From Patescibacteria group bacterium (GTDB taxonomy: Bacteria; Patescibacteriota; Patescibacteriia; UBA1558; GWA2-36-10), in assembly GCA_041665505.1 (NCBI GenBank), contig JBAYIR010000007.1, positions 1 to 55,716 on the forward strand: a stretch of DNA of 55,716 bases, in the 5' to 3' direction. Below are positions 13,217-46,118 of this stretch, piece by piece (the stretch's first letter is position 1; the number at the start of each line of letters is the position of its first letter). The translations under genes were made by a program, and so were the position numbers. Below the pieces are notes generated by a model, which saw only the letters and a program-made list of their open reading frames with translations, was not told the origin of the DNA and ran no database searches.

Positions 13217-13243
13217 GCCGGGGCGCGCGTTGCGCACCCCGGC
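13217..13243 (-). terminator. island A terminator (GC hairpin)
   Basis: gccgggg-c-gcgc/gcgc-a-ccccggc hairpin 8 nt after the A1 stop, followed by a T-rich tail on the minus strand. Confidence 0.7.
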
Positions 13244-13251
13244 GTGGATCC

Positions 13252-13608
13252 TCAGATCCAGTACTTCAGCTCCTGGCGGCTGAACTGTCTGATCTTCGCC
13301 GCCTGACGGCGGGAGATCCCATGTCGCTGAGCGAACTCAGCATTGGTCTCCTGGTCGGGACAGTCAGGACCTGGCGTGAGCTGACGAGCTCTCTGCTGAA
13401 TGGTCTCGAAGCGATGATGCTTGAGAACATCCCAGCTGAACTGAGAGTCGTAGCAGCACTCGCATCCCCAACGCCGGACATTGTAGAAGGTGACCTCCTG
13501 ACACTGCGAACAGGCAGTACTCTCCCAGTAGTAGGGATCATTCATACACCTGTTCAGGTATTCGGTCAGCACGACATGTTCGTAGCTCCAGCGGCGCTCG
13601 GATTCCAT
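13252..13608 (-). CDS. island ORF A1: Cys-rich protein with C-terminal HTH-like segment (118 aa)
   Basis: SD AAGGAG 6 nt before the ATG, with its own promoter and terminator. Motifs CSQC, GCECC and TNAEFAQRHGISRRQAAKIR. Confidence 0.65.
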   Translation of the reverse strand: MESERRWSYEHVVLTEYLNRCMNDPYYWESTACSQCQEVTFYNVRRWGCECCYDSQFSWDVLKHHRFETIQQRARQLTPGPDCPDQETNAEFAQRHGISRRQAAKIRQFSRQELKYWI

Positions 13609-13800
13609 GGTTGGCTCCTTCTGAAGAATGCGTGGTCGAGACCAGCACCTTCAGAAAGGAGAGAGAAGGGGAAGGATGAGACTGAAGGTGCTTCAGATTT
13701 GCACCTAGCCTTAGTGAAATTCCCAGTTCCAAGGCATTTCTGCCTCTCTTTCATTGAAGAACGCACTCCGTCAGAAATACGAATATTTCTGACCCAAAGT
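13609..13800 (-). promoter_or_regulatory. structured GC-rich 5' leader of A1
   Basis: 10-bp hairpin capped by a UUCG loop (13770-13793). An 11-bp long-range stem (13644-13654 / 13682-13692) encloses a CU-rich loop and competes with a local hairpin (13682-13696). Confidence 0.5.
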
Positions 13801-13804
13801 AAAC

Positions 13805-13838
13805 ATTATATACTAACATATTTAAGCTATTTTGTCAA
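13805..13838 (-). promoter_or_regulatory. promoter of A1
   Basis: On the minus strand: TTGACA, 17-nt spacer, TAGTAT with TGn, and an overlapping TATAAT. It shares an identical 22-nt -35/UP segment with 14865-14886. Confidence 0.65.
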
Positions 13839-13851
13839 TGATATTATTTAT

Positions 13852-13887
13852 CTAAAACAAAAAGCCGGTACAATATTTCATGTACCG
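13852..13887 (-). terminator. terminator of the A3-A2 operon
   Basis: Stem cggtaca/tgtaccg followed by a T-run on the minus strand. Confidence 0.6.
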
Positions 13888-13938
13888 ACCAAGATCATCA
13901 CTCGGGGGTGGATGATCAAAACCCTTTGGTCTGGCTCC

Positions 13939-14283
13939 CTACGGAGCCTCGAGATCTTGATGCTCGAAGGGCAGAGCGCCCATTTGCTCCGCGTCCAGGA
14001 AGAACACGGGAAGATGCATCGTAGGCAAGCCGAAGTGTCGACCCGTCAGCTCTCTGGTAACCTCGGCGACCAGAGAGGCGTCCTGGCAGAGAATCAGCAG
14101 CTGGTTGCCCAACTTGAAGTCGGACCACAACCTGTTGTGGGGGATGCTCGTATCCCTCACTTCAACGTTGACAGTCATGCGTTCTCGGAGCTTGAGCACC
14201 TTGATGACCCTCTCGAGAGTCCCGGCTGTTGCGGGGTTGAGGTCAACCGTGCTCAGGTTGAGGTAAAGGATAAATAGGATCAT
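13939..14283 (-). CDS. island ORF A2: hypothetical protein (114 aa)
   Basis: SD GGAAGGAAGGG 3 nt before the ATG. Second gene of the operon. Confidence 0.6.
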   Translation of the reverse strand: MILFILYLNLSTVDLNPATAGTLERVIKVLKLRERMTVNVEVRDTSIPHNRLWSDFKLGNQLLILCQDASLVAEVTRELTGRHFGLPTMHLPVFFLDAEQMGALPFEHQDLEAP

Positions 14284-14343
14284 GTCCCTTCCTTCCGTTT
14301 TGGCCCAAGAAGGACCGTGTGAACGTGCGAGCTCAGGCGAGAG

Positions 14344-14673
14344 TTACTGCTTCTTCTGGAGCTGCTCCAGGCAGTCTTGAATCTCTGCATAAGCATCACG
14401 TTCGTCTTCTGTGACACCTCTCTTATAGAGAAGCATCGTTGATTGGGCTTGTCTTTGCTCGAAGTTTCCACCCTTGAACTCAAAAGTGTATTTACCAGGT
14501 CGAAAAAAAGGAAAGAAAAAATGACCAAAACCACTGCGTACACAGATGATCGTGTACGAATAAGTATCCGTATCGCATTGTTTGAGTACCTGACCATTTT
14601 CACCACAACCAGCCATGGCGACCAGACTGACGGTGAAGACGACGAGCATGAGGATCTGCCAGAACTTGCGCAT
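14344..14673 (-). CDS. island ORF A3: putative lipoprotein (109 aa)
   Basis: Signal peptide ending in a lipobox-like VAMAGC. AGGAAAGAG lies upstream of the ATG. Confidence 0.6.
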   Translation of the reverse strand: MRKFWQILMLVVFTVSLVAMAGCGENGQVLKQCDTDTYSYTIICVRSGFGHFFFPFFRPGKYTFEFKGGNFEQRQAQSTMLLYKRGVTEDERDAYAEIQDCLEQLQKKQ

Positions 14674-14845
14674 TCTCTTCTCACTCTTTCCTTGTTTAGC
14701 AGTTCTTACACTGCCGTGCTTGTGCCAGAACGCAGAATTATCTAGGCACTATACTGGGCTTAAGTTTTTTTAACTTATTCTTAAGCTTTCAATATAGTGG
14801 CTAGATAATATTTTTTTAAAAGAACTTATTTTAAGTTAATGCAGT

Positions 14846-14874
14846 ATTATATAATAAATATACAATTTTGTCAA
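14846..14874 (-). promoter_or_regulatory. consensus promoter of the A3-A2 operon
   Basis: On the minus strand: TTGACA (14869-14874), 17-nt spacer, TATAAT (14846-14851). Confidence 0.7.
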
Positions 14875-14965
14875 TGATATTATTTAATTTAAGTTATAAA
14901 AAATATTAATTTCTATAATCAACATTTTTTGCTATAATACAAGAGTAAAAATTAATAAAAAAATT

Positions 14966-15706
14966 ATGTTATTAGAAAATAAAGTAGCCATTGTCACTGG
15001 TGCAGCCATGGGTATTGGTTTGGGTATTGTCAAAGCACTAGCCAAAGAAAAATGCCAAGTAGTAGTATCTGATATCAAGCTAGCTGACTGTCAAAAAGTA
15101 GTCAAAGAATTAGAAAAACAAGGTGTCAAAGCACTGGCTGTCAAATGTGATGTTAGTAAAAAATCAGAAGTCACCAAGCTATTTCAAGAGACCAAAAAAA
15201 AGCTTGGTCGTTTAGATATATTGGTCAACAATGCCGGTATTTATCCTTTTGTGCCTTTTAGTCAGATGAAAGAAGCTGATTGGGACAAAGTCATGTCAGT
15301 CAATTTGAAAAGTCTTTTCTTTACTTGCCAAGCAGCTACCAATGCTATGTCTAGCGGTGGCCGGATAATCAATATTTCTTCCATTGCTTCAATAGTTGGT
15401 TTTGAAAATTTGGTACACTATTGCGCTTCCAAAGGAGCAGTCAATAGTATGGTCAGAGCCTTAGCTTTAGAGCTTGCCCCCAAAAATATTTTAGTCAACG
15501 CTGTGGCTCCAGGAGCCATTGCTACGCCTGGCGCTAATAAGGGTATGAATGAAGCTAGCCTCAAACAAATGACCGCCGCTATACCACTAGCTCGCGTTGG
15601 TCAGCCGGAAGATATTGCTGGAGCAGTAGTATTTTTGGCTTCAGAATTGTCAAATTATGTAACTGGGCAGACTATTGTGGTGGATGGCGGTTGGACTTTA
15701 CGCTAA
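14966..15706 (+). CDS. short-chain dehydrogenase/reductase (FabG-like)
   Basis: TGAAMGIG Rossmann motif, NNAG and YCASKGAV catalytic motif. Confidence 0.85.
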   Translation: MLLENKVAIVTGAAMGIGLGIVKALAKEKCQVVVSDIKLADCQKVVKELEKQGVKALAVKCDVSKKSEVTKLFQETKKKLGRLDILVNNAGIYPFVPFSQMKEADWDKVMSVNLKSLFFTCQAATNAMSSGGRIINISSIASIVGFENLVHYCASKGAVNSMVRALALELAPKNILVNAVAPGAIATPGANKGMNEASLKQMTAAIPLARVGQPEDIAGAVVFLASELSNYVTGQTIVVDGGWTLR

Positions 15707-15767
15707 AAATTTTAAATAGAAAATATTTTTTGCTTAGCTAGAGGATTTTTTATATCAAAAAAAAGTT

Positions 15768-17250: not shown

Positions 17251-17287
17251 GTTTATTTAAATAATTTTTTTTAGAAAAAATAAATGA

Positions 17288-17312
17288 CCGGGGCGCGCTG
17301 CGCGCACCCCGG
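17288..17312 (-). terminator. island B terminator, near-identical to the island A terminator
   Basis: ccgggg-c-gcgc tgc gcgc-a-ccccgg. It has the same C/A mismatch as 13217-13243 and a T-rich tail on the minus strand. Confidence 0.7.
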
Positions 17313-17324
17313 CCGAGCTAGTGG

Positions 17325-17675
17325 CTACTCAGTAGCCATGTCGCTTTCGCTCATGAAGATCTCCAACCGACATCCGTAGATTCGGATGCCGAGCTTCTCG
17401 GCTCTGAGGGCCAAGATGACCAGATCAGCCTCGAGGCGGTCACTGTAGATGATCAACAGGGAGGGTTTGTCCACGGTCGGACCAGACACAGCCTTGTCCA
17501 CGGTCGGACCAGACACAGCCTTGACCACCTGCACATTGTCATGCAGATTGACCTCAGCATCATCCCCCAGTTTAAACTGTTTGATCACCCGCAAGATGGC
17601 ACCGAGGACACGCTTCTTGACGGCCATGGTATCTGTGTCTTTACTACCAAGGCCGTAGACCCCGAACAGGAACAT
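17325..17675 (-). CDS. island ORF B1: hypothetical protein, paralog of the B2 N-terminal domain (116 aa)
   Basis: Start moved to the ATG at 17675, which has SD AAGGAAGGAAG 3 nt upstream. Alignable to B2 (VLGAILRVIKQFKLGDDAEVNL vs VLSVICRVVQELRLRDDAVITL). Confidence 0.6.
   Translation of the reverse strand: MFLFGVYGLGSKDTDTMAVKKRVLGAILRVIKQFKLGDDAEVNLHDNVQVVKAVSGPTVDKAVSGPTVDKPSLLIIYSDRLEADLVILALRAEKLGIRIYGCRLEIFMSESDMATE
17467..17520. repeat. perfect 27-bp tandem duplication inside B1
   Basis: 17467-17493 equals 17494-17520. The duplication is in frame and encodes KAVSGPTVD twice. Confidence 0.9.
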
Positions 17676-17735
17676 TGGCTTCCTTCCTTTCAGAACTCCG
17701 CGATCCAAGCTGTGGAGCACTTGTCTGGGCGATCT

Positions 17736-18227
17736 CTAGAAGTCGAACTCTCCGGCGCCGGAGAGGCTGCTGCCCTCTTCCGGACCATCGATCTCGTCGC
17801 CTCCGTCGTCGTCGAGATGATCGCTCATCTGTCTGGCACTGGGGTCCAAGAGGGAGAGTTGGGGATTCTTTTTCGGACCATCGATCTCGTCGCCTCCGTC
17901 GTCGTCGAGTGGCCGACCCATCTCGCTTGCGCTGAAGAATTTGTTCAGGGCCGGTACTTCCGTGTCGAGCCGGAGGTTGTTCATCTTGAGAGCCAGCAGA
18001 ATGTGGCCCAGGTCGATCGGCTCGGGACAGAAGATCTCGAGGTAGGGTTTGGCCTGCGGTAGGCCAGGAACAGCCTGGAACACCTGGGACGAGAAGAGGG
18101 TGATGACAGCGTCATCTCGGAGGCGCAGTTCTTGAACCACACGGCAGATGACACTGAGCACCCATTCCCTGAGGGTAATGACCTCGATGGTATTGCCACC
18201 GAGACCATGTAGTTTGAAGTTGGGCAC
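17736..18227 (-). CDS. island ORF B2: hypothetical protein with acidic repeat tail (163 aa, GTG start)
   Basis: SD AAGGAAGGAG 5 nt before the GTG at 18227, which is 17 nt after the B3 stop. The C-terminus carries LDDDGGDEIDGP twice. Confidence 0.55.
   Translation of the reverse strand: MPNFKLHGLGGNTIEVITLREWVLSVICRVVQELRLRDDAVITLFSSQVFQAVPGLPQAKPYLEIFCPEPIDLGHILLALKMNNLRLDTEVPALNKFFSASEMGRPLDDDGGDEIDGPKKNPQLSLLDPSARQMSDHLDDDGGDEIDGPEEGSSLSGAGEFDF
17781..17909. repeat. two perfect 36-bp direct repeats inside B2
   Basis: 17781-17816 equals 17874-17909, a 93-nt in-frame offset. Confidence 0.9.
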
Positions 18228-18244
18228 GTCGACTCCTTCCTTGT

Positions 18245-18853
18245 CTAGAACTCCGCGATCCACGCGGTGAACCACTCGTCCGGACGATCGACATTGACCG
18301 TCAGAACGATTTTGCAGGTGCTCAAGTGCTTGAGCGGCGCACAGTTGTAGTACATTCCCAAGAAGATCTGCCGGGAGCTGGTCTCGCTCAGGCGGGTCTC
18401 GTTGAAGACCCCCAGGCGGGATTTTCCCAACTTGATCTGTTGGCGCAGGAGCCCGCTGTCGGACGACTGGTCGGTAGACCATTGGCCGAGGTTGTAGCTC
18501 TGCCAGACCAGACCGCGTCCCAGTGGCAGTGCGAAATCCAGTTCACCGGAAACGAAGCGGATCTTCTCCGCGCCGTCAACCGTGGACCAGGTCGGGCCAG
18601 CACCGACTTCGAACTTGTCGAAGCCGGGCACAGAGGTAGCGTAGCGAATCAGGACGTTCGACTGCTCGCCCGTGACGAACCAAGGATGGATCATCCAGCT
18701 GTCGCTGAGGTAGTAGTCGGCGAAGAACACGATCGGGATGTCGGAGCGGAGCTCCAGTCCGAAGGCATTGTCGCCAGCCATGGCCGGCTGGACGCTGATG
18801 ATGGTGAAGAGCACCAAGGCGAGGAGTAGTGAGTAGATGTTCTTGGAGCGCAT
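18245..18853 (-). CDS. island ORF B3: secreted beta-barrel-like protein ending in Phe (202 aa)
   Basis: SD GGAAGGAAAG, signal peptide ...VQPAMA/GD, alternating beta-strand-like pattern and C-terminal ...FTAWIAEF. Confidence 0.6.
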   Translation of the reverse strand: MRSKNIYSLLLALVLFTIISVQPAMAGDNAFGLELRSDIPIVFFADYYLSDSWMIHPWFVTGEQSNVLIRYATSVPGFDKFEVGAGPTWSTVDGAEKIRFVSGELDFALPLGRGLVWQSYNLGQWSTDQSSDSGLLRQQIKLGKSRLGVFNETRLSETSSRQIFLGMYYNCAPLKHLSTCKIVLTVNVDRPDEWFTAWIAEF

Positions 18854-19019
18854 GACTTTCCTTCCGGTGAGTGGACCTCTTTGGCCTGTTCAAATGTCTT
18901 CTAAGAAGTCACTTGAATTTGGCCGCTTACTTATCTATCGCCAAAGCTTAGCTACAGACGCTGCTTGTTGTCCATTTTTGGACTTGTATAAGGACAAATC
19001 GCACGGATTTTAACATTTT

Positions 19020-19048
19020 AAAGTAACATAGTTTATTGATTTTGTCAA
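19020..19048 (-). promoter_or_regulatory. promoter of the B3-B2-B1 operon
   Basis: On the minus strand: TTGACA, 17-nt spacer, TACTTT with a TGn extension. Confidence 0.5.
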
Positions 19049-19098
19049 TGTAGATAAATATGCTTTATTATTGATTTTATGACTTATACTTGTTTATA

Positions 19099-19127
19099 TT
19101 GACAATTTATATATTTTATGATATAAT
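19099..19127 (+). promoter_or_regulatory. divergent consensus promoter of B4
   Basis: TTGACA, 17-nt spacer, TATAAT (perfect consensus). Confidence 0.7.
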
Positions 19128-19197
19128 AATATATTAAGTTCAGAGTCCCGAGTTGATAAACCGGCCAAGCAATTGGCCTTAGACAGAGGAGATACTC

Positions 19198-19422
19198 ATG
19201 ATCCGTTCACTCAAGACCATTTTCAGCCCTTTCCGGCTGGTCTACGCCGGTGCTTCTCTCTGCCTCTACAACAGAGAGGCACATCGGAGCAAGATGGCCC
19301 AGCTGGCCGAAGGTGAACGCCTCTTCACCGAGGTGCTGGTTGGCGGCTTCATCACCGCCCTGATGGTCATCACCATCGTTTTCGCCAGTCGCTACATCGC
19401 GGCCGGCAGTATCTTGGTCTAG
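19198..19422 (+). CDS. island ORF B4: small protein with C-terminal TM helix (74 aa)
   Basis: SD GAGGAG 6 nt upstream, with its own promoter and terminator. Confidence 0.55.
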   Translation: MIRSLKTIFSPFRLVYAGASLCLYNREAHRSKMAQLAEGERLFTEVLVGGFITALMVITIVFASRYIAAGSILV

Positions 19423-19449
19423 GCCTGGCTCACGAGCTAGACCTGACCG

Positions 19450-19484
19450 GCCCCGGATCTGCGCAGATCCGGGGCTAGTTTTTT
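19450..19484 (+). terminator. island B right-hand terminator
   Basis: 13-bp perfect palindrome gccccggatctgc/gcagatccggggc followed by T6. Confidence 0.75.
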
Positions 19485-19567
19485 GTTTAAGAAAAAGCCA
19501 AAATTATTTTTTGCTTTGTCTATTTTCAAAAAGGGAGTAAAATATACTTATAATTTAAAATAAAGCT

Positions 19568-20557
19568 ATGGACAAAAATTTATTAAACAATTTACACAAA
19601 GACGCCGCTGCTAATATTTTGACGGATAAAGTACCTGTAGTCAGTCCAGAAAATACTATTCGCACAGTAGAGGAATATTTGCTCAAAAATGTTAGGAAGT
19701 TGGATTCTATAAATTATGTTTATGTGCTTAGCAAAACAGGCCTACTCAAAGGCGCTTTGTCTATTAAAGAAATTTTCCGACAGCCAAAAAATAGCAATAT
19801 TTCAGAAGTCATGGTCAAAGAGCTGATTACAGCTCATCCCCATACTGATCGGGAAAGAGTAGCTTATTTGGCTTTAAAAAATAATCTAAAGGCCATACCA
19901 GTTATAGATAAAGATGGTAAATTTTTGGGTGCAGTTTTGAGTGATACTATTTTAAATACTCTTTATCAAGAATCCCAAGAGGATATTTTGCACTTTGCCG
20001 GTGTAGGTCATCATAAAATTAATATAGATGATGTCACTTCTATGTCTTTAGTGGCTTCCTTAAAACACCGTTTGCCATGGTTGGTGCTTGGTCTAGTGGG
20101 AGGTATTTTGGCTGCTCAAGTTATTGCTTTATTTGAAACTACTTTATCAGAAAATATCATCTTGGCTGCTTTTATTCCTTTGGTGGTTTATATGGCTAGT
20201 GCGGTTGGGACACAAATTGGATTTTTTATCATCAGAGATTTGGCTATAAACCCAAAAATTAAATTTTTAATTTATTCTTTACGCCAATTTAGGGTTATAT
20301 TTTTTCTGGGCATAATTATAAGCATATTAATTTTTGCAGCGACTTTACTTTTTTACGGAAATTTATTATTAGCTTTTGTTTTGGGTTTAGCTATGTTTTT
20401 GGCTATTTTATCTTCTATTATCACTGGCTTATTTATTCCTTATGCTTTTAGTCGTTTACGTTTTGATCCAGCTAATGCTAGCGGTCCAATTGCTACTATT
20501 GTTCAAGATTTGACTAGTGTTACTATTTATCTTTTGGTAGCTAAGTGGCTGTTATAA
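19568..20557 (+). CDS. mgtE: magnesium transporter MgtE (short form)
   Basis: CBS pair followed by a 5-TM MgtE membrane domain (PIATIVQDLTSV). Confidence 0.75.
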   Translation: MDKNLLNNLHKDAAANILTDKVPVVSPENTIRTVEEYLLKNVRKLDSINYVYVLSKTGLLKGALSIKEIFRQPKNSNISEVMVKELITAHPHTDRERVAYLALKNNLKAIPVIDKDGKFLGAVLSDTILNTLYQESQEDILHFAGVGHHKINIDDVTSMSLVASLKHRLPWLVLGLVGGILAAQVIALFETTLSENIILAAFIPLVVYMASAVGTQIGFFIIRDLAINPKIKFLIYSLRQFRVIFFLGIIISILIFAATLLFYGNLLLAFVLGLAMFLAILSSIITGLFIPYAFSRLRFDPANASGPIATIVQDLTSVTIYLLVAKWLL

Positions 20558-25100: not shown

Positions 25101-26651
25101 ATGTCAAAAGTAAACCTAGATGCACTCATTCCACGCGCTGATTTCGAAAGTGCAGGTGCTGATAATTCTTTAAATTATTTTGATAAAATTACGATTAGCA
25201 GTTATCAAACAAATTTATTTTATCCTTTTCTCAGAAAACCAGATTTTCAACGAGAAACAAGCGAATGGGATATTAAAAAAAATTATGATTTTATTAAAAG
25301 TTTTATTGATGGAGATTTAATTCCTTCTATTATTTTATGGAGAAGTCAATCAGGTTTTTATTTTGTTATTGATGGAGCCCATAGATTAAGTGCATTAACT
25401 TCATGGATACTTGATGATTATGGGGATGGTGATGCGTCTTTAAAGTTTTATAATAACGCTATATCCGAAGATCAAAAAGAAATAGCTAATAACGCAAGAA
25501 AATATATCAACAAAAACCTAGGGGCATACAAGGATATAATTGAATCAACAAATAGTAGTAATCCGAATTCCGAGTACATCAAAATTGCAAAAAATCTCGG
25601 AGCACATTCTCTTCAAGTTCAGTGGATTTCTGGTAATGCCAAAAAGGCAGAACAATCTTTTTTTAAGATAAATCAACAGGGGGTCCCGTTAAATAATACG
25701 GAAATAAAATTACTTCAATCGAGAAAAAAAGGAAATTGCATAGCAGCGCGAGCAATTATCAGGGCTGGTAGTGGCCATAAATATTGGTCAGAATTTTCTG
25801 CCGAAAATCAGAAGACGATTCAAGAAATTTCTGAAGAAATCAACAAAATTTTGTTTTCTCCTCCTCTAAAAAGCCCGATAAAGTCGTTAGATTATTTACC
25901 AATAGCTGGTAAAATATCATCTACCCAAGCACTTCCTCTTATATTTGATTTTATTAATATCACGAATGTCATTCCACTTGATTTTAAAGATAAAATTAAT
26001 GATGATTTGAATGGAGAAGAAACACTCAAATATCTTAAAAACGTTCGCAAAATAGCTTGGAGAATTAATAGTGTGCATCCTTCTTCTTTAGGTCTTCATC
26101 CAGCAGTTTATTTTTATTCATCTGACGGAAGACATAAAACCGCATCTTTTTATGCTATAGCTACTTTTATACAGGAACTCGAAAATAAAAATGAATTTAA
26201 TAAGTTTATTAAAGTGCGAGATAAATTTGAAGAATTATTATTAAGTTATGATTATTTGATTCAGGACATTAATAGGCATTATAGACAAGCCATGAAGAGT
26301 TACGTTCATATTAAAGATTTTTACATGGATTGTATAGAAATGCTTGGAGCTGGTGAGACAATCAAGGAAATGATTGAGGGTATTGTTAAAATACCTAAAT
26401 ACAAATATTTAAAAACTTCGCATCCAGCTATAGACATTGTAAAGTCTGGAGAATTTACTAAGGAAAGAAAATCTGCTGTCTTTATTAAAGATGCGTTGAA
26501 AAATGCTACACGCTGTAAAATCTGTAATGGGCATCTTCACGTAAATTCGATTACCATAGACCATATAAATCGCAAAGAGGATGGAGGGTTAGGAAACATA
26601 GACAATGGACAAATAACCCATCCGTATTGCAACACTACCGTAAAAAATTAA
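25101..26651 (+). CDS. ParB/DUF262-like (DGxHR) protein fused to a C-terminal HNH nuclease motif
   Basis: PDFQRE...VIDGAHRLSAL near the N-terminus. C-terminal CKICNGHLHVNSITIDHINRKEDGG...HPYCN. Confidence 0.6.
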   Translation: MSKVNLDALIPRADFESAGADNSLNYFDKITISSYQTNLFYPFLRKPDFQRETSEWDIKKNYDFIKSFIDGDLIPSIILWRSQSGFYFVIDGAHRLSALTSWILDDYGDGDASLKFYNNAISEDQKEIANNARKYINKNLGAYKDIIESTNSSNPNSEYIKIAKNLGAHSLQVQWISGNAKKAEQSFFKINQQGVPLNNTEIKLLQSRKKGNCIAARAIIRAGSGHKYWSEFSAENQKTIQEISEEINKILFSPPLKSPIKSLDYLPIAGKISSTQALPLIFDFINITNVIPLDFKDKINDDLNGEETLKYLKNVRKIAWRINSVHPSSLGLHPAVYFYSSDGRHKTASFYAIATFIQELENKNEFNKFIKVRDKFEELLLSYDYLIQDINRHYRQAMKSYVHIKDFYMDCIEMLGAGETIKEMIEGIVKIPKYKYLKTSHPAIDIVKSGEFTKERKSAVFIKDALKNATRCKICNGHLHVNSITIDHINRKEDGGLGNIDNGQITHPYCNTTVKN

Positions 26652-32538: not shown

Positions 32539-32599
32539 TTATTTTAAATTAGCTAATAAATATAGAAAACAAGACTATCTGTCTTGTTTTTTGGTATAA

Positions 32600-32628
32600 T
32601 TGACAAATTTGATAATTTATGATGTAAT
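32600..32628 (+). promoter_or_regulatory. promoter of island C
   Basis: TTGACA, 17-nt spacer, TGTAAT with a TGn extension. Confidence 0.6.
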
Positions 32629-32674
32629 CTGCTTACTGGAAGCAATCACCCCATACTTCAGGGAGGAAAAGTCC

Positions 32675-32989
32675 ATGAATGATTTTGACGACGTACTCCA
32701 ATATGGTCCTCATGAACCCTCGAGGTCCAGGACGCCCAGCATCTTCAATGGCAACCACTGCACTTGTGGTGGTTTGGTCAATTTGCAGACGGGCGTCTGC
32801 TGGCGGTGCCACCACCAGCACACTCTCGATCTGGATGGCGGCCAGCGCAATGCCAAGCCCAAGCCTCAGGTCTCTGAGGCAGAAAACTTGTTGCGATCGG
32901 TCAGCCTCAGCGAGAAGCAGTGCGATCTCTGCTTTCATGGAACCATCGGCGAGGATGGAAAATGTGATGTATGTGAGAACAGTCCGTAA
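32675..32989 (+). CDS. island ORF C1: double zinc-ribbon-like protein (104 aa)
   Basis: Start moved to the ATG at 32675, which has SD GGGAGGA 7 nt upstream. Motifs CTC...CWRC and CDLC...CDVC. Confidence 0.65.
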   Translation: MNDFDDVLQYGPHEPSRSRTPSIFNGNHCTCGGLVNLQTGVCWRCHHQHTLDLDGGQRNAKPKPQVSEAENLLRSVSLSEKQCDLCFHGTIGEDGKCDVCENSP

Positions 32990-33034
32990 ATCATTGCGGA
33001 CCATTCTAGGCGCTATCAGCGCCATTGCCTTCCA

Positions 33035-33069
33035 GAGAGCCGCGGACATGTTCGCGGCTCTCTCCTTTT
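33035..33069 (+). terminator. island C terminator
   Basis: 10-bp stem gagagccgcg/cgcggctctc followed by cttttt. Confidence 0.7.
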
Positions 33070-40404: not shown

Positions 40405-40435
40405 GACCCCGCCACGTTTCTGACGTGGCGGGGTC
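40405..40435. terminator. GC hairpin shared by the convergent uvrC and island D gene
   Basis: gaccccgccacg / cgtggcggggtc, starting 16 nt after the uvrC stop and ending 22 nt after the D1 stop. Confidence 0.65.
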
Positions 40436-40457
40436 CTTGCTTCTGGCTCAGCTGAGC

Positions 40458-40880
40458 CTAGGGATTGGCCGTGGTGGCCGGCTCGGGCCAGACGTGGTAG
40501 CCCAGCTTGAGGCCATCGGGGCCAGCGATCTCGGTCCGGGTCCGGATGGCATTCATGTTGAACACCAGACGACCGTAGATGGTCCGCTGATCTCCCTTGG
40601 GCAGGGCGTTGATCAGGGCACAGGCGTAGGACCAGCGCCGGGCGCTCTCGTGGTCGTGATGGCGTTCCTTGCGCAGACTGCGCAGGGCATCGGTGATGCC
40701 GAAGATATCACCCAGAGCGAGTTCTTCGGACTTGAACCAAGGCTGGTTCAGGATGGTGTGACCCAAGAGGGCCGCACCTTCCTCGTCATCAGGCATGACG
40801 ACAGCCATGTCCTCGAACGGAACGCCGAGGAAGGCGAAGAGGTCCTGGTAGTGATCGATCTTGGCAGCGGGGTGCTTCAT
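40458..40880 (-). CDS. island ORF D1: hypothetical protein (140 aa)
   Basis: SD AGGAG 9 nt upstream, with its own promoter and terminator. Confidence 0.6.
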   Translation of the reverse strand: MKHPAAKIDHYQDLFAFLGVPFEDMAVVMPDDEEGAALLGHTILNQPWFKSEELALGDIFGITDALRSLRKERHHDHESARRWSYACALINALPKGDQRTIYGRLVFNMNAIRTRTEIAGPDGLKLGYHVWPEPATTANP

Positions 40881-41009
40881 GTCAGTTAACTCCTGGCTCT
40901 AGCTTTTGTTTTTTTGCTAGTATTTTTCAACTAGCGCTCCTCCTTGAATCCGACGAATCCTTTCACGGTCTAGGGTGAATGGTGATGGGGGTGAACATAG
41001 AATTAATAT

Positions 41010-41037
41010 AATATAGAACAAAATCACTTTTTTGTCA
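41010..41037 (-). promoter_or_regulatory. promoter of D1
   Basis: On the minus strand: TTGACA, 16-nt spacer, TATATT. Confidence 0.55.
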
Positions 41038-41115
41038 AGCAGATAATTATAGAAAAATTACTGCTATTTTTAATTTTATTAATTTAATCTTAAATTTATG
41101 CTATAATTTATATCT

Positions 41116-41847
41116 ATGAAAAAGAATATAATTTTTATTTTATTTTTATTAGTTTGGCCATTAGTTTCTTTGGCTGAGGATTTAGATACTGATGCTGACG
41201 GCTTGAGTGATGAAAAGGAAATTAATATCTATTTTACCAAGTATGACCAAGCTGATACAGATGCTGATGGCTACAATGATGGCGTGGAAATAAAGGCTGG
41301 TTTTTCTCCACACTATGGAGAAGCTAAAAAACTCATTCAAGTAGATTCAGATAAAGATTATTTAAATGACAAATGGGAGCTAGTGCTTGGCACTGGTTTG
41401 ATGAATCCCGATAGTGATGGAGATTTGTATTTAGACGGCACAGAAGTAGCTGCTAGCTATGATCCTTTGGATAAAGAAACAAAAAAATTAGAAAAAATAA
41501 TAAAAGTAGACATTGCCAAACAAAATTTGTCTTATTATTTTGATAATAAGCTTTTTGATTCTTTCCCAATATCTAGTGGTGTCAGTGGTATGAATACACC
41601 AGAAGGAGAATTCAAAATATTAGACAAAGTGCCAGTCAAACACTATGGTGGTGGAAATTATGATTACCCCAATACTAAGTGGAATTTACACTTTACTACT
41701 CGCACTTACCGTTATTATATCCACGGAGCTTATTGGCACAACAATTTTGGTCACCCTATGAGTCATGGTTGTGTCAATGTGGCTTATGAAAATATGGAGC
41801 ATCTTTATTGGTGGGCTCAGTATGATACCAAAGTAATAATAGATTAA
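41116..41847 (+). CDS. L,D-transpeptidase (YkuD domain) with thrombospondin-type-3-like Ca-binding repeats
   Basis: Signal peptide, DTDADGLSDEKE / DTDADGYNDGVE repeats and the catalytic motif HG...SHGCVN. Confidence 0.85.
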   Translation: MKKNIIFILFLLVWPLVSLAEDLDTDADGLSDEKEINIYFTKYDQADTDADGYNDGVEIKAGFSPHYGEAKKLIQVDSDKDYLNDKWELVLGTGLMNPDSDGDLYLDGTEVAASYDPLDKETKKLEKIIKVDIAKQNLSYYFDNKLFDSFPISSGVSGMNTPEGEFKILDKVPVKHYGGGNYDYPNTKWNLHFTTRTYRYYIHGAYWHNNFGHPMSHGCVNVAYENMEHLYWWAQYDTKVIID

Positions 41848-42206: not shown

Positions 42207-42219
42207 AATTATTTCATTA

Positions 42220-42721: not shown

Positions 42722-42810
42722 AATCTTTTATTTCCAGTACTTATATTATAGGGGTATTTGCCATTTTTAGCAAAATAGATTATAATAATTTTACTTTAAA
42801 ATTGAATAAT

Positions 42811-42973
42811 TTATCAAGAGAGCGGGGAGAGAATTGGCTCTATAATCCGCCAGCAACCCACTTACGCATCGCTTTTAGCGAGGAGCGAAGTAGGGTGCTA
42901 AGTCCAACCCTTAATTAAGGCAGGGAAAGATGATAAAATCATTATTACTTTCTCTGTTCGGGAAAGTTTTTTT
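42811..42973 (+). promoter_or_regulatory. SAM-I (S-box) riboswitch with terminator
   Basis: TTATCAAGAGAG..GGGGAGAGAATTGGCTCTATAATCCGCCAGCAACC...GGTGCTAAGTCCA...GAAAGATGATAA, then stem actttc/gaaagt plus T7 (42947-42973). It lies directly upstream of metK. Confidence 0.85.
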
Positions 42974-42997: not shown

Positions 42998-44008
42998 ATG
43001 TTAAAAACTGCAGAAAATGTAACTTTTGGTCATCCAGACAAAGTTTGTGATCAGATCTCGGATGCTATTTTAGATGAGTGTTTACGTCAAGATCCAAATA
43101 CCAGAGCTGGTATTGAAGTAGTAGGTGGGCATGGTCAATTATTTATTACCGGTGAGGTGAGTACCAAGGCTGATTTTGATGCTGCTCAAATAGCTAGAGA
43201 TTTATATAAAGAAATTGGTTATCAGGAAGAATTAAAAATAATGGTCAATATTGTCAGACAAAGTCCGGATATTGCTAGAGGAGTAGATACTGGTGGAGCT
43301 GGTGATCAAGGTATTATGGTTGGCTATGCTACTAGTGAGACTGAAGAATTATTACCTCGTGAGCATGTTTTGGCCAATAAGTTGGCTAGAAAATTGGAAG
43401 AAGTCAGACTTAAAGGCGAAACTGATTTAGCCAAAGTACTAATGCCAGATGGCAAATCTCAAGTTACTTTGGATAATGGTACTGTAGATACAGTAGTAGT
43501 CTCTACTCAACACAAAGAGGGCGTTGATCAAAATCAACTGAGAGAATGGATCATCAGTGAAGTGGTTAAACCTATCATACCTGAGTATAAAAAGATATTT
43601 ATTAACCCCACTGGCTCTTTTGTCCAGGGTGGCTTTGAGGCAGATGCTGGATTAACTGGTCGGAAAATAATTGTGGATAACTATGGTCCACAAATACCAG
43701 TGGGTGGTGGTTGCTACAGTGGTAAAGATGCTACCAAAGTTGACCGTTCAGCTGCTTTTATGGCTCGTTATTTAGCGGTAAAATATCTTAAGGAATATAA
43801 TGCCAAAGAAGTATTGGTTAAATTAGCCTATGCTATTGGTGAACCACAACCAGTCATGGCTACAGCCTTAGTTGACGGACAATCCGTTGAAATTAAAGGT
43901 TATGATTTGTCTCCAAAAGGTATTATTGACAAACTTAATTTGAGAAAACCACAATATAGAGATAGAGCTAGGTATGGTTATTTTGTTGCTTTTGATGTTA
44001 AAGAATAA
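42998..44008 (+). CDS. metK: S-adenosylmethionine synthetase (compact, 336 aa)
   Basis: GHPDKVCDQISDAILD, GAGDQGIM and GGGCYSGKDATKVDRS motifs. Confidence 0.9.
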   Translation: MLKTAENVTFGHPDKVCDQISDAILDECLRQDPNTRAGIEVVGGHGQLFITGEVSTKADFDAAQIARDLYKEIGYQEELKIMVNIVRQSPDIARGVDTGGAGDQGIMVGYATSETEELLPREHVLANKLARKLEEVRLKGETDLAKVLMPDGKSQVTLDNGTVDTVVVSTQHKEGVDQNQLREWIISEVVKPIIPEYKKIFINPTGSFVQGGFEADAGLTGRKIIVDNYGPQIPVGGGCYSGKDATKVDRSAAFMARYLAVKYLKEYNAKEVLVKLAYAIGEPQPVMATALVDGQSVEIKGYDLSPKGIIDKLNLRKPQYRDRARYGYFVAFDVKE

Positions 44009-44012
44009 GTCC

Positions 44013-44041
44013 TTGACTAATACTAAGCGCATTGATATTAT
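44013..44041 (+). promoter_or_regulatory. island E cassette 1 promoter
   Basis: TTGACT, 17-nt spacer, TATTAT with TGn. Confidence 0.6.
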
Positions 44042-44050
44042 AAATATAAT

Positions 44051-44119
44051 ATGAATAAACAGATAGAACAATCAAATTTTTTAAAGGTTTATTTTATTAT
44101 TGGTCGTTTGACGACTTAG
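44051..44119 (+). CDS. leader mini-ORF 1 (22 codons)
   Basis: The ATG lies 9 nt after the -10 box. Encodes MNKQIEQSNFLKVYFIIGRLTT. The TAG stop sits just 3' of hairpin gtcgt/acgac, which is followed by a T-run. Confidence 0.35.
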   Translation: MNKQIEQSNFLKVYFIIGRLTT

Positions 44120-44154
44120 TTTTTGCGTATATTTTATAATATAAACAAAGATTA

Positions 44155-44178
44155 GGTCGCCTCAAGCGACCTTTTTTT
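44155..44178 (+). terminator. leader terminator 1
   Basis: Stem ggtcgc/gcgacc followed by T7. Confidence 0.65.
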
Positions 44179-44239
44179 GATGGAGTTCATTACACACGCC
44201 AAGCCAAGTCAAAACTAGCCTTTAGGAAAGGGGTCTGAA

Positions 44240-44431
44240 ATGGTCAGATTTCGACATCCTAGTGGCACCGGATTCATAGATGTCTGTTACTGTCGCCCCT
44301 GTTTGAATTGTGATTACGATCACTGTCTGCATCGTCAAGATGCTGACGCTTCTCTCAAGGAAGAACAGCCAGACACGAAAAATGTCTTAGACAAGGAAGG
44401 AGGAAATCCAACAGAAGCGGATCTTCACTAG
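44240..44431 (+). CDS. island ORF E1: Cys-rich small protein (63 aa)
   Basis: SD AGGAAAGGGG. Motif CYCRPCLNCDYDHC. Confidence 0.55.
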   Translation: MVRFRHPSGTGFIDVCYCRPCLNCDYDHCLHRQDADASLKEEQPDTKNVLDKEGGNPTEADLH

Positions 44432-44461
44432 TGGGGAAAACAAAACCAAGGATGGTTAGCC

Positions 44462-44683
44462 ATGCAGCAAGTTAGTTCTGTGATCTCAGGAAAAGACTGC
44501 TGTGCCTGTGTTGGCCCGGCTTCCCGTGACCATGGTCATGATATCTTTTCCTGCGAAAACCACGAATGCGTGGTGGTGGCTCAGACCGTGGCTAATAGGT
44601 TTGTGGCTTCTCTGCGCGGAGACATGCAGAGCGAGTTGGCTCTTGATCTGGATCAGTTTCCTGATATCGGCCGTAGGCTTTAG
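44462..44683 (+). CDS. island ORF E2: Cys-rich small protein (73 aa)
   Basis: SD AAGGATGG. Motifs DCCAC and SCENHEC. Confidence 0.55.
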   Translation: MQQVSSVISGKDCCACVGPASRDHGHDIFSCENHECVVVAQTVANRFVASLRGDMQSELALDLDQFPDIGRRL

Positions 44684-44708
44684 GCTTTTCGGCTGTCGGC
44701 ATTGGTTA

Positions 44709-44740
44709 GTCGCGGACATTCCTTCGGGAATGTCCGCGAC
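44709..44740 (+). terminator. 14-bp GC hairpin with UUCG loop ending cassette 1
   Basis: gtcgcggacattcc ttcg ggaatgtccgcgac. The T-tail is weak. Confidence 0.5.
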
Positions 44741-44756
44741 CTCAAATTCATATAGT

Positions 44757-44784
44757 TTGACTAATTTTTGAAAAATGATAATAT
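44757..44784 (+). promoter_or_regulatory. island E cassette 2 promoter
   Basis: TTGACT, 16-nt spacer, TAATAT with TGn. Confidence 0.6.
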
Positions 44785-44791
44785 ATTTAAT

Positions 44792-44866
44792 ATGCAAGAT
44801 ATAAACAGACAATTGAATCAAAATTATTTTGGTTTTTACTTTTTCTTTAGTCGTCAGGCGACTTAG
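44792..44866 (+). CDS. leader mini-ORF 2 (24 codons)
   Basis: The ATG lies 7 nt after the -10 box, so the mRNA is probably leaderless. Encodes MQDINRQLNQNYFGFYFFFSRQAT. The TAG stop sits just 3' of hairpin agtcg/cgact, which is followed by a T-run. Confidence 0.35.
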   Translation: MQDINRQLNQNYFGFYFFFSRQAT

Positions 44867-44910
44867 TTTTTTGCATATATATTTATTAAAATAAATTGAG
44901 CATAGAAGCA

Positions 44911-44936
44911 AGTCGCCAAGCAGGCGGCTTTTTTTG
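44911..44936 (+). terminator. leader terminator 2
   Basis: Stem agtcgcc/ggcggct followed by T7. Confidence 0.65.
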
Positions 44937-45009
44937 ATAGTTCTTTCCATCTTTTCTTTCTGGATTCTTCTCTTGGTGTCAGCGTTCACCTACAAACGGA
45001 GGAAATCTC

Positions 45010-45144
45010 ATGAAGCACAAGCCAGACCTTAAGACCAGAGACCAAGCAGCTGGCCAGACCAAGCCTTCCAAAGAGGCTATAGCAGAGTTTGCCCGTCTGG
45101 TGGCCGAGCAACTGGCTAGCAGCCGGCATGGCTGCGGCATGTGA
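45010..45144 (+). CDS. island ORF E3: small protein (44 aa, not in ORF track)
   Basis: SD GGAGGA 7 nt upstream. Encodes MKHKPDLKTRDQAAGQTKPSKEAIAEFARLVAEQLASSRHGCGM. Confidence 0.5.
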   Translation: MKHKPDLKTRDQAAGQTKPSKEAIAEFARLVAEQLASSRHGCGM

Positions 45145-45169
45145 GTCTAACCAGACATCAATCGGGGGT

Positions 45170-45201
45170 GTGCCCGCAACATTAGCTAATGTTGCGGGCA
45201 C
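45170..45201 (+). terminator. 14-bp GC hairpin ending cassette 2
   Basis: gtgcccgcaacatt agct aatgttgcgggcac. Confidence 0.55.
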
Positions 45202-45207
45202 TTCTAT

Positions 45208-45236
45208 TTGACAGTCAAAATTTTTTATGATATTAT
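45208..45236 (+). promoter_or_regulatory. island E cassette 3 promoter
   Basis: TTGACA, 17-nt spacer, TATTAT with TGn. Confidence 0.6.
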
Positions 45237-45255
45237 TTTTTTATAAAAATTCAAT

Positions 45256-45306
45256 ATGTTTAGGAGTTTAATTATCATTATCAGCATTATTTTGTTAACG
45301 CCCTAG
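45256..45306 (+). CDS. leader mini-ORF 3 (16 codons)
   Basis: Encodes MFRSLIIIISIILLTP. The TAG stop lies inside hairpin cgcc/ggcg, which is followed by a T-run. Confidence 0.3.
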   Translation: MFRSLIIIISIILLTP

Positions 45307-45359
45307 GCGATCAGATTTTTGTTGCTAGTAATAATTTAACTTCCAAACATCAAAAATGA

Positions 45360-45388
45360 ATCGCCCAGCTGGCGGTTTTTCTTTTTTG
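45360..45388 (+). terminator. leader terminator 3
   Basis: Stem atcgcc/ggcggt followed by a ttttcttttttgg tail. Confidence 0.6.
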
Positions 45389-45492
45389 GAGAAAGTACAT
45401 TATCAATTCTATGCTTGTTTGACTGGAATTTCAGTTTCTGGGTCTAGCCTGAGAGTGAGTGTCGTCTACACCAGCACAAGGAGGCTTTCCTG

Positions 45493-45738
45493 ATGGACCA
45501 GATGCATTCAGACAGATACCAGCCCAAGAAAGGGCCGGCATTGATTCCGATTGTCAAGAAGGTTCTTCAGCGTATCTACGCTGAAGAGGATTTGGGAGGA
45601 GTCGACCCCATCCGCTCGGCGGAAAACGAATCCCTGATTGCCTTCTACCTGCGGCAGAACTGCCGCTGTCCGGCTGACAGCCAGTGGTGCATGTGCGGTG
45701 GAGGTTTCACTGTGTCTGACGGAAGGCGGAGCCCTTAG
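45493..45738 (+). CDS. island ORF E4: Cys-rich small protein (81 aa)
   Basis: SD AAGGAGG 8 nt upstream. Motifs NCRC and WCMC. Confidence 0.6.
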   Translation: MDQMHSDRYQPKKGPALIPIVKKVLQRIYAEEDLGGVDPIRSAENESLIAFYLRQNCRCPADSQWCMCGGGFTVSDGRRSP

Positions 45739-45759
45739 TCAAGCTTCAAGGAGGAAGAG

Positions 45760-46053
45760 GTGTTTCAGGAGGATGAGAGGCCTAAGAGGCCTCAAGATTT
45801 GCCCAAAGGGTTGTGGCGCTGCCAGTACTGTGAACAGGAGTTTTGTACTCCACTTAGTTGTTTGGAGAGGCTCAGAGCCCTTCACTCAGAAAGAGAGCGA
45901 GAAATGAAGGATCGAGACGAGCAAAAGGTGGCTAGCGACCAAGAACAGCCGCCAACTGAGAAGCCTCAGGCTCCCAGTGTTTGTGCTGAATGTCAGTGCC
46001 CTGACCGTCAGCATGGTCGTGAATGTTCTTACCATATTGCGGTCATCATCTGA
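45760..46053 (+). CDS. island ORF E5: Cys-rich small protein (97 aa, GTG start)
   Basis: SD AAGGAGGA 4-5 nt upstream. Motifs CQYC..FC..SC and CAECQC. Confidence 0.55.
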   Translation: MFQEDERPKRPQDLPKGLWRCQYCEQEFCTPLSCLERLRALHSEREREMKDRDEQKVASDQEQPPTEKPQAPSVCAECQCPDRQHGRECSYHIAVII

Positions 46054-46079
46054 CCAAGAGGTCAGCGACGACCTTAGAA

Positions 46080-46118
46080 GCCCCACCACGTCCGACGTGG
46101 TGGGGCTCTATATTTTTT
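46080..46118 (+). terminator. island E final terminator
   Basis: gccccaccacgt / acgtggtggggc followed by a T-run. It resembles the hairpin at 40405-40435. Confidence 0.7.

Follow-up and report, generated by a model that had tools for sequence, protein, structure and literature searches.

The DNA analysed here, a 55,716-nucleotide stretch of contig JBAYIR010000007.1 from a Patescibacteria group bacterium (the window), carries five GC-rich segments, at approximately 13217-14745, 17288-19476, 32640-33062, 40405-40990 and 44180-46106 (islands 1 to 5), between the housekeeping genes of an AT-rich chromosome. Their 14 open reading frames (ORFs), lettered A to E by island, are arranged in nine units (A1; A3-A2; B3-B2-B1; B4; C; D; E1-E2; E3; E4-E5), an organisation first proposed in an earlier note on the sequence (the original prediction) and recovered again here. 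The favoured interpretation, at a probability of about 0.5, is that these units are a resident, lineage-restricted and strain-variable accessory class of a Komeilibacteria-related Patescibacterium, riboregulated and dependent on Shine-Dalgarno (SD) sites, and are not fresh imports.

The overall GC content of the window is 36.5% and that of the remainder outside the five islands 34.4%, where 400-bp windows (mean 34.6, sd 4.3) do not exceed 46.5%. Islands 1 to 5 have GC contents of 51.2, 54.8, 54.4, 59.4 and 46.7%, respectively. The figure of about 60% GC or more given originally suits the coding cores of the island ORFs (0.46-0.62) but not the whole segments (46.7-59.4%), which include AT-rich promoter spacers at 18907-19137, 44758-44968 and 45220-45420; the spot counts given with it, 39/60 in 18541-18600 and 18/60 in 20281-20340, are both exact. 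The islands are not chimeric, because independent assemblies from other samples cross the AT/GC junctions, in contigs that are 100% identical (JGI 3300037810, SRR6484324) or ~87-92% identical (SRR22387796, SRR222164xx). The island ORFs are truly protein-coding, with a GC content of 0.39-0.83 at third codon positions (GC3) versus 0.34-0.49 at second positions (GC2) and strong codon periodicity. Ratios of nonsynonymous to synonymous substitution (dN/dS) between the window and L005, a ~90% identical strain with the same synteny, are 0.25 for B3, 0.29 for B4 and 0.40 for B2, and 0.03-0.18 for four host genes. The chance that the islands are an assembly artefact, or GC-rich structured RNA genes with fortuitous ORFs, is close to negligible. 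Structured RNAs in AT-rich genomes classically show up as intergenic islands rich in GC, and long spurious ORFs do occur on opposite strands (e.g., 13195-14277), but the junctions recur in four or more independent assemblies, which rejects a chimera, and three-base periodicity, signal peptides, dN/dS < 1, conserved families and a confident B3 fold also speak against this rival. An Rfam scan of the islands likewise gave no match at gathering score, islands 1 and 2 showing weak sub-threshold matches only (E up to 1).

Two expression classes coexist in the genome

The sharpest contrast between island and host genes, which was missed originally, lies in their initiation signals. Each of the 14 island ORFs has an SD site, as had been noted, with a calculated duplex energy of -5.4 to -11.1 kcal/mol against ACCUCCUUA, whereas a convincing SD precedes none of the ~45 host ORFs, whose upstream regions are A/T runs. 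The motif TATAAT often lies 7-15 nt 5′ of the host ATG (e.g., 41096-41118, 12276-12300 and 19548-19570), so that many host mRNAs are likely to be leaderless or near-leaderless, implying that leaderless or very short-leader mRNAs may be the default translation mode of the organism. Host-like genes in five related loci (L006-L010) are also SD-poor.

The same division appears in codon choice. Relative synonymous codon usage is correlated among islands 1-4 (r 0.70-0.80) and anticorrelated between islands 1-4 and the host (-0.21 to -0.38), with leucine encoded by CTC/CTG in the islands versus TTA/TTG in the host, where GC3 is 0.16-0.37. High expression was considered as a cause of the island GC3 and rejected, as two likely highly expressed host genes, encoding a pilin-like protein (GC3 0.20) and HU (0.34), keep host-type codons far from the island pattern; the island codons are therefore not a host 'optimal codon' set. 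The pilin-like gene is a type IV pilin-like, Ala/Thr-rich ORF at 2-415, truncated by the window start. Other AT-rich Patescibacteria-like loci contain further GC3-rich, SD-led ORFs (L053 11815-12504, L060 4200-5500, L006 514-1662, L010 3804-4091 and L004 10623-10985), including a STAS-domain protein and an A2-like gene, and the two-class pattern is thus not limited to the window.

The host is, judging from its sequence affinities, a Patescibacterium near Candidatus Komeilibacteria, the closest relatives of the MgtE gene adjoining island 2 (56-68% identity) being found in Patescibacteria metagenome-assembled genomes that include this group. The relatives of the island families point in the same direction. 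Among 5.8 billion proteins there are 8 relatives of B3, and the B3 profile gives 20 matches against 1.84 billion cluster representatives, each ~180-220 aa long, with a signal peptide and with W-x-x-x-F/L at the C-terminus; B2/B1/A2 is a family of six, three of which lie inside the window. All retrieved B3-family contexts are AT-rich contigs (36-40% GC) with Patescibacteria-like housekeeping neighbours, in which the gene is either a lone cassette or part of a B3-B2 operon, led by a TTGACA...TATAAT promoter and an SD and closed by a terminator with a GC hairpin. GC3 of these family members is 0.60-0.87 (0.60-0.71 in L004, L053, L054 and L058-60, on contigs of 37-40% GC), with the one exception of 0.42 in L056 (contig of 35.6% GC), while that of their neighbours is 0.25-0.37. 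The SD is kept in 9/9 members with upstream sequence read, B2 follows B3 in all close relatives, and the chromosomal position of the family differs between distant genomes. Relatives at host-like GC were looked for, and the B3 relatives stay GC-enriched and SD-led, even a distant one at a different locus; where host genes are only ~76% identical, the B3 family still has a GC3 of 0.60. The searched families (B3; B2/B1/A2) are, by the sequences retrieved, confined to the phylum, and since every B3 context is AT-rich and Patescibacteria-like, the features that look foreign would be a long-standing property of these families within it. The proposal of foreign genes from donors of much higher GC content is consequently not supported as it stands for B3 and B2/B1/A2, for which no donor was found and whose relatives are GC-rich and SD-led in AT-rich Patescibacteria-like contigs. 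A search of 2.9 million viral contigs with the A2/B1/B2 and B3 profiles and with D and A1 found no relatives, and a metagenome contig scan with D gave no match. Next to one B3-family gene, L056 4290-4560 is GC-rich, apparently non-coding and contains long complementary segments; it follows the B3-family terminator, adjoins tRNA-like sequence and may be a structured RNA.

Whether the GC content of B3 is fading was addressed with four B3 orthologues and a fifth as outgroup, synonymous changes at third positions being polarised by parsimony along the terminal branches of the four. There are 44 changes from G/C to A/T (S>W) on ~522 G/C sites and 25 from A/T to G/C (W>S) on ~60 A/T sites, or 0.084 versus 0.42 per site, so that the W>S rate is ~5x the S>W rate and the implied equilibrium GC3 is ~0.8, with 0.82-0.87 observed. 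The same procedure applied to two host controls, MgtE and SDR, gives 43/165 S>W and 56/563 W>S, with an implied GC3 of ~0.28, near that observed. Decay toward the host GC3 of 0.25-0.3 would give an S>W excess of ~15:1 in B3, which is not seen; the contrast between B3 and the host corresponds to a fixation bias toward G/C of 4Nes ~2.5, calculated from these counts. Synonymous divergence (dS) between the window and L005 is 0.36 for B3, inside the host range of 0.23-0.43, which suggests that B3 has co-diverged with the chromosome; dS of B4 and B2 is higher, at 0.75. B3 thus seems to be kept at a GC-rich equilibrium of its own by fixation bias and not to be decaying.

Architecture, leaders and products of the cassettes

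The elements of the nine units are as follows, with promoters, leaders and terminators as predicted and promoter matches to the sigma-70 type scored out of 12.

13217-13243, minus strand: A1 terminator, 12-pair stem with 11 GC
13252-13608, minus strand: A1, 118 aa, N-terminal half Cys-rich, C-terminal half helix-turn-helix-like; GC3 0.71; SD GAAGGAG
13609-13806, minus strand: A1 5′ leader, ~200 nt, predicted fold z -3.2; CUCCUUUCUGAAG would pair with the SD region CUUCAGAAGGAG
13810-13838, minus strand: A1 promoter TTGACA-17-TAGTAT with TG, 10/12; adjoins a 22-nt module copy at 13829-13850
13863-13890, minus strand: A3-A2 terminator
13939-14283, minus strand: A2, 114 aa, distant member of the B1/B2 family; GC3 0.76; SD GGAAGGAAGGG
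14344-14673, minus strand: A3, predicted lipoprotein of 109 aa with signal peptide and lipobox ..AMAG-C; GC3 0.50
14846-14874, minus strand: A3-A2 promoter TTGACA-17-TATAAT, 12/12; second 22-nt module copy at 14865-14886
17286-17314, minus strand: B3-B2-B1 operon terminator, 13 pairs with 11 GC
17325-17675, minus strand: B1, 116 aa, B2 paralogue (E 3e-12)
17736-18227, minus strand: B2, 163 aa, GTG start (MPNFKLHGL...), acidic repeat tail ending EFDF
18245-18853, minus strand: B3, 202 aa, Sec signal peptide, 12 predicted beta strands, C-terminal ..WIAEF; GC3 0.83
18854-19046, minus strand: B3 promoter and ~160-nt leader, -35 TTGACA at 19041-19046
19099-19127, plus strand: B4 promoter TTGACA-17-TATAAT with TG, 12/12, divergent from the B3 promoter
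19198-19422, plus strand: B4, 74 aa, hydrophobic C-terminal segment; GC3 0.77; kept in L005 (73% aa)
19449-19476, plus strand: B4 terminator
32600-32628, plus strand: C promoter TTGACA ... TATGATGTAAT, directly 3′ of a host terminator module at 32566-32599
32675-32989, plus strand: C, 104 aa, Cys-rich (CxC / CxxC pairs); GC3 0.64; SD GGGAGGA
33034-33063, plus strand: C terminator
40405-40435, minus strand: D terminator, 14 pairs
40458-40880, minus strand: D, 140 aa; GC 0.62, GC3 0.80; no detectable relatives
40881-41038, minus strand: D promoter TTGACA-17-TATATT (11/12 at 41038-41010) and leader
44013-44172, plus strand: E unit 1 front module, with promoter 44013-44041 (10/12), 22-codon near-leaderless ORF 44051-44119, and long hairpin and T-run 44102-44172
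44240-44431, plus strand: E1, 63 aa, Cys-rich, with SD
44462-44683, plus strand: E2, 73 aa, Cys-rich, with SD; E1-E2 closed by a 14-bp hairpin at 44709-44740
44758-44930, plus strand: E unit 2 front module, with promoter TTGACT..TAATAT, mini-ORF 44792-44866, and hairpin and T-run to 44930
45010-45144, plus strand: E3, 44 aa
45170-45201, plus strand: E3 terminator
45208-45378, plus strand: E unit 3 front module, with promoter 45208-45236 (11/12, TG), mini-ORF 45256-45306, and hairpin and T-run 45358-45378
45493-45738, plus strand: E4, 81 aa, Cys-rich
45760-46053, plus strand: E5, 97 aa, GTG start, Cys-rich
46079-46107, plus strand: E4-E5 terminator

All nine units are bracketed by a predicted consensus promoter and a strong terminator hairpin. 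The best promoter matches of the scanned regions fall ahead of island units, and the near-consensus promoters claimed originally are recovered as two matches each of 12/12, 11/12 and 10/12, although B3 and C combine a perfect -35 with only a weaker -10 (TACTTT and TGTAAT, respectively). The layout of the C promoter is that of the promoter of the host-type EamA gene. The strongest hairpins do close the units (12-14 pairs, 8-11 GC), as described, but they are not all perfect, some stems containing a mismatch or a G-T pair, and that at 44709-44740 is without a T-run. Two pairs of terminators are related in sequence, 13217-13243 with 17286-17314 and 40405-40435 with 46079-46107.

Several of the leaders have features that point to gating of cassette expression, as far as can be judged from predicted folds. 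The promoter and leader of B3 are 95-97% identical among four strains in which the B3 codons are only 56-70% identical; the leader has a predicted fold with z -3.8 versus shuffles, in which UUUGUCCUU upstream pairs with the SD, an arrangement that resembles the one predicted for A1. Within the D leader lies a TTG mini-ORF (40930-40886, read by eye) that is SD-led and whose stop overlaps the D SD. Ahead of every GC-rich block of island 5 there is one of three AT-rich, mutually homologous front modules (69% identity) composed of a promoter, a near-leaderless ORF of 16-24 codons ending inside a long hairpin, and a T-run, with fold z-scores of -6.95, -2.8 and -4.9 for units 1-3. As no other promoter precedes the GC-rich genes, transcription of the island 5 genes would have to read through the front module, which makes the modules candidates for leader-peptide transcription attenuators.

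None of the 14 proteins had been recognised from sequence, and the family libraries agree, with no above-threshold match for A1-A3, B1-B4, C, D and E5 in Pfam, PHROGs, NCBIfam and PADLOC, and none for E1-E4 in Pfam, the one library scanned for them. The most informative product is B3, predicted to be a 12-stranded outer-membrane-type beta-barrel. Its AlphaFold2 model, built from an 8-sequence alignment (pLDDT 82), consists of a helix at 4-20 followed by 12 strands, and the top Foldseek matches in the PDB are all outer-membrane barrels (Omp33, KdgM, NanC, PcoB, invasin/intimin beta-domains and FapF), at E 4e-4 to 1e-2, a TM score of about 0.55 and 7-13% identity. Across the 8 sequences 49 columns are invariant and the C-terminus reads ..WIAEF or ..IIEF in 8/8, in keeping with an aromatic beta-signal; most of the remote members end in W-x-x-x-F/L. 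Such a barrel is unexpected, since the cells of the Candidate Phyla Radiation (CPR) described so far are monoderm (PMC8871954).

The partner gene B2 yields a poor AlphaFold2 model (pLDDT 55) with two beta-alpha-beta units and insignificant ferredoxin-like matches only. A tautomerase/MIF identity, considered for B2 on account of its N-terminal Pro and beta-alpha-beta units, was rejected, there being no PDB profile match, a poor model and only insignificant fold matches; B1 and A2 are without Pro2. A 67-nt repeat in 17775-17934 of B2, encoding acidic DDDGGDEIDGP, is strain-variable in copy number, and in B1 a stretch of 27 nt is perfectly duplicated in tandem at 17467-17520 (AVSGPTVDK x2), the internal repeats of both genes varying between strains. 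Small Cys-rich proteins number six (A1, C, E1, E2, E4 and E5). The A1 orthologue in L005 has an identical C-terminal half. An RRWSY motif common to A1 and D is an 8-residue match with E 0.12 and was taken as chance. As the products are mainly envelope or secreted proteins, including the barrel with its partner, together with small Cys-rich proteins, a role at the cell surface or in host interaction is the most likely one for the cargo; the original suggestion of host-interaction or accessory functions fits both these products and the strain variability of A3-A2 and B1.

Turnover between strains and neighbouring genes

Two of the GC-rich segments differ between closely related strains, and the indel junctions fall in repeated modules. 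L005 lacks the A3-A2 unit (13850-14878), and the indel junction falls within a promoter piece of 21-22 nt, AAATAATATCATTGACAAAAT, of which the window has a copy at either end of the unit; the promoter module that marks the junction, ATTTTGTCAATGATATTATTTA (22 nt), is present at 13829-13850 and 14865-14886. The B1 unit (17313-17722) is also absent from L005, and ahead of it stands a relic of 43 nt, made up of B3 3′-end sequence plus an SD (17692-17734), which suggests that it was copied from another B3-type operon.

The EamA/DMT gene (12298-13158, GC 25%, leaderless) is a strain-variable cassette of host-like composition. It is flanked by a 38-nt direct repeat of a terminator module (12225-12262 and 13179-13216, 95% identical) and is missing from L061-L063 (~92% identical). 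Cassette turnover across short repeated modules thus characterises this region in general and is not special to GC-rich DNA, as this AT-rich cassette also varies at a repeated terminator module. Each of the A3-A2, B1 and EamA events may be an insertion or a deletion. The original prediction had found no integrase, transposase, reverse transcriptase or att-like repeats, and indeed no such gene is found by Pfam among window ORFs >= 100 aa, and the boundaries are duplicated promoter/terminator modules with no att site. It had also named no insertion mechanism; a plausible route can now be offered in recombination at these duplicated modules.

At the spot upstream of mgtE that holds island 2, L007 (Ca. 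Komeilibacteria RIFOXYD1_FULL_37_29) carries a different cassette (9100-9950, ~50% GC, SD-led) with its own TTGACA promoter, two ORFs, the second with a lipoprotein-like signal start, and a hairpin terminator, which suggests that the gap is a recurrent insertion site. A further variable segment lies just upstream of tRNA-Trp (12045-12118), where 11647-11672 is a copy of the 5′ part of the tRNA, followed by GC-rich sequence and a GIY-YIG endonuclease ORF (11788-12033); 11677-12044 is missing from L061 and L062, and 11647-12044 has the look of an intron remnant, or of an insertion of the homing-endonuclease type, at a tRNA gene.

The genes flanking the islands encode EamA, SDR, M23, FKBP, MgtE, HAD, UvrC, YkuD, MetK and HU, and Pfam bears out the names given to them earlier (EamA/SDR, FKBP/MgtE, HAD, UvrC/YkuD and MetK/HU). 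A SAM (S-box) riboswitch at 42808-42936 (59.4 bits, above gathering score) lies ahead of metK (42998-44008). Two defence-type genes of host-like composition encode GmrSD-N with an HNH endonuclease and an OLD-family AAA/TOPRIM nuclease (25101-26651 and 50968-52302, respectively).

Explanations and known systems

In the favoured interpretation, the nine units would constitute a second expression class, long-term chromosomal residents beside AT-rich, SD-less and often leaderless housekeeping genes. In their leaders, the SD would be paired with an anti-SD stretch further upstream (A1 and B3), or the genes would be preceded by a mini-ORF and a terminator hairpin (D and E), and the cassettes would be gained, lost and moved between strains via recombination across short repeated promoter/terminator modules. 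Ribosomes of the cell would initiate at 5′ ends that are open and A/U-rich, and promoter-like sites would abound in its AT-rich DNA; a GC-rich body together with SD dependence could keep the mRNAs closed to default SD-independent initiation and free of cryptic AT-rich promoters, so that envelope genes, which might do harm, would stay silent until the leader opens. Ultimately, the genes are probably of foreign, though ancient, origin. A broader proposition, which can be put forward only tentatively, is that some Patescibacteria possess two expression codes, one for an AT-rich core that is SD-less or leaderless and the other for a GC-rich, SD-dependent, riboregulated and mobile surface or host-interaction set, its composition held by selection or fixation bias (4Nes ~2.5). 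In its strongest form, genes such as that of the barrel would have to function with or in a GC-rich, SD-using partner cell.

Several points weigh against a resident, SD-dependent class. Promoters, SD use and leader switches are all predictions, and SD use in this cell in particular, since the 16S 3′ end, sought for its anti-SD, was not recovered (neither the window nor nine related loci contain rRNA) and the anti-SD motif is absent from about half of Parcubacteria 16S (PMC9297842). The class is not uniform, as in island 5 and A3 GC3 is intermediate (0.39-0.62) and codons are less similar (r 0.3-0.4). No relatives are known of D, the gene with the highest GC content, and for A1, C, D and E1-E5 an undetected donor is possible because the homologue search for these genes consisted of family libraries and two collection scans. 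The substitution test concerns one gene family and 69 changes called by parsimony, a few of the W>S calls may be homoplasy, and the B3 spectrum fits selection, GC-biased conversion or allele replacement from an external GC-rich pool alike, which it cannot separate. The 'insulation' rationale for GC-richness is one that we infer.

The most direct alternative is a recent import from one or a few SD-using organisms of ~60% GC, captured behind host promoters and not yet ameliorated. The composition, codon and SD usage of the islands are all foreign to the host, the shared codon pattern of islands 1-4 and the related terminator pairs could come from one source, the cassettes vary between strains, and Patescibacteria are reported to have many islands and transferred genes (PMC12455944). 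Such an import is nevertheless unlikely, as neither the 5.8 billion nor the 1.84 billion set contains a homologue of B3 or B2/B1/A2 outside AT-rich Patescibacteria-like contigs, B3 and the host genes flanking it have equal dS, GC3 is still 0.60 in the ~76%-identical relative, the B3 substitution spectrum is at a GC-rich equilibrium far from ~15:1 S>W, and the leaders are predicted regulatory RNAs conserved in the host lineage. Nor is it probable that the cassettes reside mainly on an unsampled GC-rich plasmid or phage whose composition they share and from which they are repeatedly copied into the chromosome. Their moron-like autonomy, their different chromosomal positions across genomes and their inter-related terminators would suit such re-seeding, and the near-identity of the B3 leaders despite diverged coding sequence could reflect recent recombination. 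Against it stand the absence of any relative in the 2.9 million viral contigs (four queries) and of a PHROG match, the contigs examined, none of which has these genes in a GC-rich, phage or plasmid context, the synteny and dS between the window and L005, which fit in-place inheritance, and the lack of an integrase or att site.

That the genes are built for expression in a GC-rich Gram-negative partner, as T-DNA genes carry plant signals, is very improbable. The universal sigma-70 promoters, SD sites, GC-rich codons and barrel with its C-terminal aromatic signal would all suit a partner of this kind: no SD precedes the cell's own genes, those likely to be highly expressed have the opposite codon choice, the GC-rich state persists through maintenance, and B3 is modelled as an outer-membrane-type barrel though described CPR cells are monoderm (PMC8871954). 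The promoters, however, are of the same type as those of host genes such as EamA, the leaders resemble riboregulators acting within the cell, and the cassettes are scattered among core genes without border repeats and without transfer or relaxase genes in the window. Nor do we know of an instance in which CPR bacteria deliver DNA or RNA.

If long-term residence is correct, compositional islands, which are normally read as fading footprints of transfer, would include at least one family that, in a tiny AT-rich genome, appears to be held at a second, GC-rich equilibrium, and composition and codon choice could stay separate within one genome for functional reasons. This would provide a handle on the regulation of special gene sets in SD-less Patescibacteria and would single out candidate surface or host-interaction proteins, including an outer-membrane-type barrel in a presumed monoderm, in a phylum whose mechanisms of symbiosis are largely unknown. 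It is also a warning that composition-based detectors of horizontal transfer and binning or decontamination filters will flag or drop such genuine chromosomal genes. No prior description of GC-rich, SD-led cassettes in CPR was found in the literature searched.

Among known systems, the original prediction likened the units to phage morons, which are independent promoter-ORF-terminator modules of deviant composition (e.g., lambda lom and bor), a definition reportedly due to Hendrix and colleagues. The autonomous architecture, deviant composition and location between unrelated genes support this comparison, as does cargo that includes an outer-membrane-type barrel and a lipoprotein, cf. lom and bor, but phage context and phage homologues are lacking; the units lie in a chromosome between housekeeping genes, without phage genes or PHROG matches, in families that, where searched, are vertically retained across a bacterial lineage and with a composition that is maintained. 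With acquired islets and ORFans they share strain variability, atypical composition, a lack of recognisable homologues and a position in intergenic hot spots. In bacteria, ORFans and islands usually exceed the host in AT content and ameliorate, whereas these cassettes are GC-richer, B3 keeps its equilibrium and the initiation signal is absent from host genes; a donor (for B3 and B2/B1/A2), mobility genes and amelioration (for B3), which would mark a recently transferred island, were not found.

Integron cassettes are comparable as small one- or two-gene mobile units that may stand side by side, as in island 5, vary between strains and end in a 3′ hairpin. Here, in contrast, each unit has its own promoter, the hairpins are terminator-like and mostly have T-runs, and the junctions lie in promoter/terminator duplicates and not in attC cores; no IntI or integrase domain is found by Pfam in window ORFs >= 100 aa, and the Rfam scan gave no match at gathering score, attC covariance models not having been run separately. 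B3 resembles the 12-stranded outer-membrane barrels (KdgM/NanC, PcoB, Omp33 and intimin/invasin) in its signal peptide, 12 antiparallel strands, length of ~200 aa and terminal ..W-x-x-x-F, with TM scores of 0.51-0.57 for the model, but differs in having no sequence or Pfam relationship to them (identity 7-13%) and in occurring, in the contigs examined, in Patescibacteria-like genomes of a phylum with monoderm described members. In SD-poor bacteria such as the Bacteroidota, SD-independent or leaderless initiation is the default and few genes are SD-led, and this organism is alike in both its default and its small minority of genes with a strong SD; unlike in those bacteria, the SD-led minority here forms a separate composition and codon class of accessory cassette genes.

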